Part shown: positions 1,027-1,373 of the stretch, piece by piece
Position numbering within the stretch: the stretch's first letter is position 1
Layout of the letters: the number at the start of each line of letters is the position of its first letter
DNA from: Minisyncoccota bacterium
Lineage (GTDB): Bacteria; Patescibacteriota; Minisyncoccia; Phycocordibacterales; DAORIS01
Length of the DNA: 64,000 nucleotides
Direction: 5' to 3'
Assembly (NCBI GenBank): GCA_035438625.1
Contig: DAORIS010000004.1
Span: 7,497-71,496 of the forward strand
Translations under genes and position numbers: made by a program
Notes under the pieces: model-generated
Database searches by the model: none
What the model saw: only the letters and a program-made list of their open reading frames with translations
Told to the model about the DNA's origin: nothing

Positions 1027-1373
1027 CATTCTGTTCCTCAATGTTTTACGTTGAGTCCATGTAAAGTGATTTACATGTGCTTTATGTCGCCATAAAGTTC
1101 GGACTATATTTTCATCTGTCTTACGACAGAGATTAGCATTTAGTCTCTGAGGATCCTTACTCACCTTTCGGTAATTAAGTTTCCTGCTGATTGTCTGCAC
1201 CAAACAGATTTTTACTCTTTCAAGTACTGTTGGATTCACAGATATTCCAGCATATAGCTAATTTCCCATTCTCTCTTTCGAGGAATGCCCCCTTATTTGT
1301 TTTTTGCGGAGTGATTAATCTCCATGAGGCGCCATAGTTTGGATGTACCAACACCATATTGTTGATACACCCA
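1027..1373 (-). other. Putative ORF-less intron or insertion in 23S rRNA beside the P-loop (E. coli about 2261-2263).
   Basis: - GGGGCGCUAUCC (rc of 1374-1385) and CCUAAAAGGUAACGGAGGAG (rc of 1008-1026) are contiguous in E. coli (GGGGCGGUCUCCUCCUAAAGAGUAACGGAGGAG).
- Here they are separated by about 347 nt with no ORF. Confidence 0.5.

Follow-up and report, generated by a model that had tools for sequence, protein, structure and literature searches.

Background

Bacterial 23S rRNA genes are interrupted by group I introns at sites L1917, L1931, L1951 and L2593 in Thermotoga, Simkania, Coxiella and cyanobacteria (Haugen et al. 2007, PMC1995217). For the CPR, the available text of Tsurumaki et al. 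(2024, PMC11270868) counts 968 insertions in 23S genes and classes 45% of them as group I introns, of which 222 lack an annotated ORF. The coordinates given in that text are 1917, 1931, 1952, 2593, 2604 and 2657, with 23IS9-11 located between 1952 and 2593, and some of the CPR sites within this interval are described there as new for bacteria. The same text summarises metatranscriptomic work in which CPR rRNA insertions were reported to be removed from transcripts, and it cites earlier groundwater-metagenome work on CPR introns.

The element described here was found in a window of 64,000 nucleotides, which is the whole stretch of DNA analysed. On the basis of comparative sequence analysis, positions 1027-1373 of its minus strand very probably represent a group I intron that is inserted at L2262 of the 23S rRNA gene of a Candidatus Paceibacterota bacterium and that would be spliced by the guanosine-initiated mechanism.

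Host and rRNA gene

The RecA protein encoded in the window is 100% identical to 'recombinase RecA [Candidatus Paceibacterota bacterium]', a MAG protein, in agreement with the CPR host that the first-pass annotation had guessed. Because the nearest relatives of this RecA belong to Patescibacteria, and FtsK and several aminoacyl-tRNA synthetases are also encoded in the window, the DNA is read as chromosomal CPR DNA. The 23S rRNA gene occupies positions 61-4053 of the minus strand (Rfam LSU_rRNA_bacteria, 2228.7 bits). Searches of the 64 kb with Rfam at gathering thresholds and with ARAGORN revealed no 16S rRNA, 5S rRNA or tRNA gene, so that the 23S and 16S genes are not linked.

Relative to E. 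coli, domain I of the 23S gene contains two extra segments, one of 54 nt at about position 274 (3734-3787, minus strand) and one of 30 nt at about position 288 (3690-3719, minus strand), and the gene has short deletions at E. coli positions of approximately 1751-1765 and 2820-2829; none of these segments and deletions carries an intron signature. The region upstream of the 23S gene starts with a 441-aa ORF (4348-5673, plus strand) without Pfam match. Two other ORFs of the window, one of 392 aa with an SpvB domain (7610-8788, minus strand; E 2e-21) and one of 1545 aa (57687-62324, minus strand), are unrelated to the intron.

Position and boundaries of the insert

Alignment with MAFFT placed the 347-nt insert between U2262 and C2263 of the 23S rRNA (E. 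coli numbering). The numbering of the fetched E. coli 23S sequence runs 2 below the canonical one in this region and was corrected by +2 via anchor motifs; the canonical positions of these anchors (modified residues such as U1939, U2449 and U2580) fix the site as U2262. In the E. coli secondary structure the insertion point falls immediately behind H80, within the 5' strand of H81. An expansion of helix 78/79 was considered and rejected, the junction being base-exact inside H80/H81.

In RNA sense, the last 13 nt of the 5' exon, GGGGCGCUAUCCU (1374-1386, minus strand), correspond to E. coli G2250-U2262 according to the alignment and the anchor motifs. They comprise the P-loop helix H80 and the start of H81, and the U at 1374 is the 5' splice-site U. 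The intron starts with UGGGUGUAUC, the first bases of which are UGGGUG, and ends with GAACAGAAUG; the 3' exon then begins with CCUAAAAGGUAACGGAGGAG (1007-1026, minus strand; E. coli C2263 onward), as placed by alignment, anchors and exon rejoining. Since the first intron base (U) differs from the first base of the 3' exon (C), and the last exon base (U) differs from the last intron base (G), the boundaries at 1373 and 1027 are unambiguous and cannot slide.

The exons, joined in silico, were compared with seven CPR 23S genes that have no intron, and the alignment across the junction ran over 239 nt with 0 gaps. The first-pass annotation, which had proposed a 347-nt insertion at 1027-1373 splitting the 23S gene, was thus exact in its limits, and its statement that the insert contains no ORF was essentially right: the intron strand has a single ORF of 50 aa or more (74 aa; 1015-1239, minus strand), which extends beyond the 3' splice site and gave no match in Pfam. 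The insert folds with -102 kcal/mol (z = -6.4 against shuffled versions of itself).

The other two inserts in the gene

Two further large inserts, after U1931 and after U2593, bear out the suggestion that the one at L2262 would be the third interruption in a single 23S gene. The insert after U1931 occupies 1703-2023 or 1704-2024 (minus strand, 321 nt) and gives a weak Rfam group I match in a permissive scan (24.2 bits, 1701-1921). Its P7 sequences look divergent, and its last base is U by rRNA alignment (...GGAAUACCCU before AGCGAAAUUCC), which leaves no terminal G unless A1932-G1933 have been lost. The insert after U2593, the classic I-CreI site, covers 353-692 (minus strand, 340 nt), matches the Rfam group I model with 32.4 bits at 360-601 in the permissive scan, ends with ...GGUAACAUG before CGUGAGACAG and is without an endonuclease-sized ORF. 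The L2262 intron of the window shows no significant similarity to its own L1931 or L2593 inserts, and hence the three are not recent duplicates. The most conserved core of this single CPR 23S gene is interrupted at three sites, L1931, L2262 and L2593, in each case by an element of group I type.

Group I architecture and core covariation

The insert yielded a match to Rfam RF00028 (group I intron) at 1080-1359 (minus strand) with 67.9 bits (E 4.5e-15; the gathering score is 50), and the alignment spans model positions 1-253 of 253. This match, together with the gap-free rejoining of the exons and the z-score of the fold, defines the 347-nt intron at 1027-1373. The predicted structure has the full group I architecture, comprising P1-P10, the P3/P7 pseudoknot, J8/7, a P7 with bulged A and a terminal G. 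A group II intron was also considered and was rejected: no Rfam group II match was obtained at E up to 1 in positions 1-7000 of the window, and the intron starts with UGGGUG, not with the GUGYG of group II 5' ends.

RNAalifold, run on 20 members of the family of inserts described below, recovered P1, P2.1, P3, P4, P5, P6 and P9. The core model, which contains 54 pairs in P2.1, P3, P4, P5, P5a, P5b, P6, P7 (pseudoknot), P8 and P9, was evaluated on an anchored MAFFT alignment of 37 sequences starting at the guide sequence. Among these 37 homologues, 92.2% of the cells in core pairs were standard, compared with 34-43% when the partners were slid by 1-3 columns, and compensatory changes were present in 39 of the 54 pairs. 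The covariation score was 0.485 versus 0.07-0.11 for the slid controls, and none of 500 shuffles attained the observed values.

The individual elements of the window copy, all on the minus strand, were assigned as follows. The P2.1 hairpin (1267-1287), with a GAAA tetraloop, was obtained from the fold, and in homologues all seven of its pairs show compensatory changes and the loop is GNRA. The P3 5' strand AUUAGC (1257-1262) pairs with the P3 3' strand GCUAAU (1132-1137), the latter placed by covariation; compensatory changes affect 6/6 pairs, and 95.5% of cells are paired. The P4/P5/P5a/P5b domain (1185-1252), assigned by covariation, includes a GAAA L5b loop and an AAAAU bulge; P4 is 100% paired with four of six pairs compensatory, and P5a consists of three helices that are 73%, 87% and 96% paired. 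P6, which lies with its extension at 1151-1184, is 98% paired, with one compensatory pair. The Rfam alignment located J6/7 and the P7 5' strand in UCAGAGACUA, with the bulged A (1141-1150), and likewise J8/7 (UGAAAA) and the P7 3' strand (UAUAGUCC) at 1101-1114. P7 is 100% paired and underwent one compensatory event, from G-C to A-U in four homologues, and AUAUAGUC, in the J8/7 region, is invariant across all aligned homologues. The P8 hairpin (1115-1130; GUAA loop), taken from the fold, has compensatory changes in 4/4 pairs but only 68.5% of its cells paired, owing to a drift of the alignment register at P8. P9, with a GCGA loop, and the P9.1 and P9.2 hairpins lie at 1037-1097. Covariation supports P9 (99.6% paired, compensatory changes in five of seven pairs), and P9.1 and P9.2 derive from the single-sequence fold. 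The 3' tail GAACAGAAUG (1027-1036) closes with the terminal omega-G at 1027, and an AACA motif precedes the terminal G in nearly all aligned short members.

All listed P3-P9 pairs of the window copy are standard, and GNRA tetraloops cap its L2.1, L5b, L8 and L9. Across the aligned members, L2.1 and L9 are mostly GNRA and L8 is GNRA in many, L5b and L8 being variable.

A family of inserts at L2262

A collection of species-representative genomes was scanned for ATAGTC followed, after a gap of 60-90 nt, by the 3' exon, which returned 74 loci, 27 of them with an insert exactly between ...CCU and CCUAAA.... A metagenome collection scanned with a more specific pattern contributed 79 more loci. An initial pattern (AAC-N6-G before the 3' splice site) had been dropped, as it misses the window copy. 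In total, and including the window, 99 loci with 79 distinct sequences carry inserts of 287-743 nt at the identical junction; these counts are lower bounds, given that the patterns demand a particular core motif and P9-region length. In 99/99 members, U is the last base of the 5' exon and G that of the insert. Nearly all named genomes belong to the CPR (Paceibacterota, Kaiser-, Taylor-, Campbell- and Lloydbacteria, Saccharibacteria). An exon variant, GGUCGCCU, occurs in a minority of the loci and also in non-CPR 23S genes among the matches. The window copy stands apart from the rest of the family: by blastn, the best match to any other member is about 74% over 175 nt.

The first-pass annotation had argued for an intron and against an expansion segment, and had proposed a search with group I and group II covariance models and a comparison with CPR 23S genes for inserts at the same site. 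The search gave the group I match of 67.9 bits and no group II match, and the comparison gave the 99 loci with an insert at the identical junction. Its preference for an intron is upheld by the RF00028 match above the gathering score, the signature of exon U and terminal G, the 99-member family at the same junction and the covariation of the core.

An ORF scan of 28 genome-collection members, counting the window, detected no recognisable homing endonuclease, and Pfam revealed no endonuclease domain (LAGLIDADG, GIY-YIG, HNH or His-Cys box) in the 74-aa ORF of the window or in four ORFs of the long homologues L046, L033, L008 and L072. Since the intron contains no homing-endonuclease gene, either vertical inheritance or descent, with loss of the endonuclease, from a mobile element is most likely. 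L2262 hosts a coherent family of ORF-less introns, mostly in CPR. The longer members have insertions, some of them with small coiled-coil-like ORFs. Glu/Lys-rich ORFs of this type, of 61-93 aa, were observed on the intron strand at L046:3048-3614, L033:397-1021 and L008:1530-2213, with start positions downstream of P4; they gave weak coiled-coil Pfam matches only and no homing-endonuclease domain.

Guide sequence, P1 and P10

A conserved AAGGGGGAC lies directly 5' of P2.1. In the short members of 287-288 nt, the G-run is situated 9 nt after the splice site and forms a textbook P1 hairpin, and for this reason the G-run is identified as the internal guide sequence. In the window it corresponds to GGGGG at 1288-1292 (minus strand), supported by covariation in homologues and by RNAalifold.

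For the comparison of exon and guide across the family, the 3' end of the G-run served as anchor, which makes the placement of the guide independent of the exon. Exon positions -1, -2 and -3 then face the guide as U.G, C-G and C-G in 69/69 members. At exon -4 the combinations with the next guide base include U:A in 52 and G:C in 8, and GCCU exons are accompanied by a GGGGC guide in 8/8; the four CCCU exons fit once the register is shifted by one base. The 5' part of the guide (AGG) is able to pair with CCU of the 3' exon (P10) over 2-3 bp, both sides being invariant and without covariation.

The window guide pairs with exon CCU (-3 to -1), with a G.U wobble at the splice site. It reads GGGGGC, and among the 57 other members with a UCCU exon 52 have GGGGGA and 4 have U after the G-run, which makes the window copy the sole UCCU-exon member with C at this place. 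As a result of the GGGGGC guide the U(-4):A pair is lost, and P1 is reduced to 3 bp; a shifted register would give 4 bp, two of them G.U pairs. The shortened P1 could weaken splicing of the window copy.

The P1-loop module and its predicted exon pairing

In the CPR-type members the guide lies far from the splice site, at a distance of 81 nt in the window. The intervening P1 loop is organised, in order, as an optional P1.1 hairpin starting at intron base 1, a conserved GCGCC-containing element termed a', a P2 hairpin and a conserved A-rich linker; the 287-288-nt relatives are without the A-rich linker. In the window copy (minus strand throughout), P1.1 is a 14-bp hairpin from intron nucleotide 1, inside the expanded P1 loop (1340-1373), present in both the MFE and the centroid fold, and an equivalent hairpin was seen in L015, L041, L048, L046, L033 and other homologues. 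It is followed by the a' element AUGGCGCCUC (1326-1335), which is complementary to 5' exon positions -13 to -4 (GGGGCGCUAU), then by the P2 hairpin UGGAG/CUCCG with loop AUUAAUCA (1307-1324), assigned from folds, and by the linker CAAAAAACAAAUAA (1293-1306), which connects P2 to the guide sequence and is A-rich in CPR-type members. The P2 loop is conserved as UUAUCC or UUUAAUCCA in L023, L027, L057, L060, L048, L046 and L033; it resembles UAUCC of the 5' exon, and in the window it occupies 1312-1319 (minus strand) as AUUAAUCA.

The pairing between a' and exon -13 to -4, here called helix A, forms in the MFE fold of the intron with its exon context. Across the family, a' was located by a motif independent of the variable exon positions, and the free position opposite exon -7 was tabulated; the five neighbouring pairs are dictated by the search motif and do not count as independent evidence. 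Opposite exon -7, G was found in 47 introns with exon C, and C in 6/6 with exon G. Counted over distinct rows, the combinations of exon -7 and partner were C:G in 30 and G:C in 5. Four exceptions represent one lineage in which the motif fell on a wrong site, and L025 and L120, with exon U at -7, have AACGC-type elements. Helix A is supported by the recurrence and position of the motif and by the covariation at -7, and in part by positions -6 and -5. A null of mononucleotide shuffles gave no discrimination for the best 8-mer complement of the exon, G.U-tolerant 8-mers being easily found, and a swap test across exon classes was noisy, with positions -5 and -13 paired in only about half of the members.

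Helix A crosses P1; with both in place, the result would be a pseudoknot that keeps exon positions -13 to -1 paired without a break. We tentatively propose, as a reading that on balance remains doubtful, that CPR-type L2262 introns bind their exon in two parts, through the guide (P1) and through a', which would pair with 7-10 nt of 5' exon (H80), the A-rich linker bridging the pseudoknot. The covarying pairing between intron and P-loop exon offers a concrete and cheap hypothesis on how introns compete with rRNA folding. If true, it could reveal how the splice site of an intron placed in very stable rRNA core helices stays accessible, and how such introns couple splicing to rRNA folding.

Proposed splicing and alternative explanations

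From the predicted structure we infer a two-step, guanosine-initiated reaction that would rejoin U2262 to C2263. In the pre-rRNA, the guide at 1288-1292 would pair with exon CCU and present U2262 in a wobble with G. An external guanosine bound in P7 would attack after U2262, the guide would then align CC of the 3' exon (P10), and the freed 3'-OH of U2262 would attack after the terminal G at 1027. Ligation would join ...GCUAUCCU to CCUAAAAGG... and restore H81 beside the P-loop, with GGGGCGCUAUCCU directly followed by CCUAAAAGGUAACGG as the expected spliced junction. Before splicing, the a' pairing may hold the upstream exon on the intron and block formation of H80/H81: the guide (GGGGGA) would mimic the 3' strand of H81, and a' would occupy H80 until the intron exits. 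For annotation, excluding 1027-1373 would give the true mature 23S sequence.

The alternative that survives best, albeit an improbable one, is that the insert is a decaying group I intron that is no longer efficiently spliced and is retained in the 23S rRNA. An unspliced intron in the 23S rRNA of Simkania is reported in a title cited in PMC11270868. The unique C after the G-run with the resulting P1 of 3-4 bp, the lack of an encoded endonuclease or maturase and the low similarity of the best blastn match within the family would all be compatible with decay. However, every core element is canonical, with standard P3-P9 pairs, the bulged A in P7, AUAUAGUC in J8/7 and the terminal G all present, and the Rfam score is well over the threshold. 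Moreover, judging from ribosome structure, 347 nt splitting the 5' strand of H81 beside the P-loop would be unlikely to be tolerated. These features speak against a non-splicing relic.

It is far less probable that the insert is not an intron but an intervening sequence or expansion segment, which would be excised by RNase III without ligation, leaving a fragmented 23S rRNA, or kept as an extra helix. Intervening sequences do exist in bacterial 23S genes, the classical sites being helices 25 and 45; the present site, U2262, is in H80/H81 and in neither of these helices. According to the available text of PMC11270868, CPR 23S genes often contain short inserts that are not introns. Against this reading stand the covariation-supported group I core with its guide sequence and the ends of the insert, UGGGUGUAUC... 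and ...GAACAGAAUG, which are not complementary and so provide no long terminal stem for RNase III. An assembly or chimera artefact, conceivable for a MAG, is the least probable explanation of all, since a like insert occurs at the identical base in 99 independent contigs from many projects.

Comparison with known systems

That CPR 23S genes often contain group I introns is already on record, and in this respect the L2262 intron is largely expected. To judge from the available text of PMC11270868, it resembles the CPR 23S introns of that study in host clade, gene, element class and Rfam model, and also in that several introns occur per gene around the peptidyl-transferase region and that ORF-less introns are frequent. 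The same text gives no description of the P1-loop module and exon pairing of the window intron. With the introns of PMC1995217 it shares the group I type and a conserved position in domain IV/V of the 23S rRNA, and the other two inserts of the window occupy two of the sites listed there (L1931 and L2593), whereas L2262 is absent from that list. The introns of PMC1995217 mostly carry single-motif LAGLIDADG genes, in contrast to the L2262 family, which has no endonuclease ORF in the 28 members scanned.

A literature search on group I introns at L2262 or position 2262 returned nothing relevant. The Tetrahymena LSU intron (IC1, L1925) is very similar to the window intron in J6/7-P7-P3 and J8/7-P7 (UCAGAGACUAAAUGCUAAUC and AUAUAGUCC). 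Its layout is also alike, with hairpins between guide and P3, a P5 extension with GAAA loop and A-rich bulge, and P9.1/P9.2. The two differ in insertion site and host domain, and in the window intron the elements preceding the guide sit in the P1 loop, one of them predicted to pair with the exon.

A literature search found no precedent for an upstream exon clamp or exon pseudoknot in natural group I introns, and the P1-loop module with its P-loop exon pairing may be new. In engineered trans-splicing group I ribozymes, an extended guide sequence serves as a second antisense segment that adds target pairing beyond the short P1, and such extended guides pair with the substrate 3' of the splice site. 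In the window intron, by contrast, a' lies between the splice site and the guide and would pair with the exon 5' of P1, which results in the pseudoknot topology.
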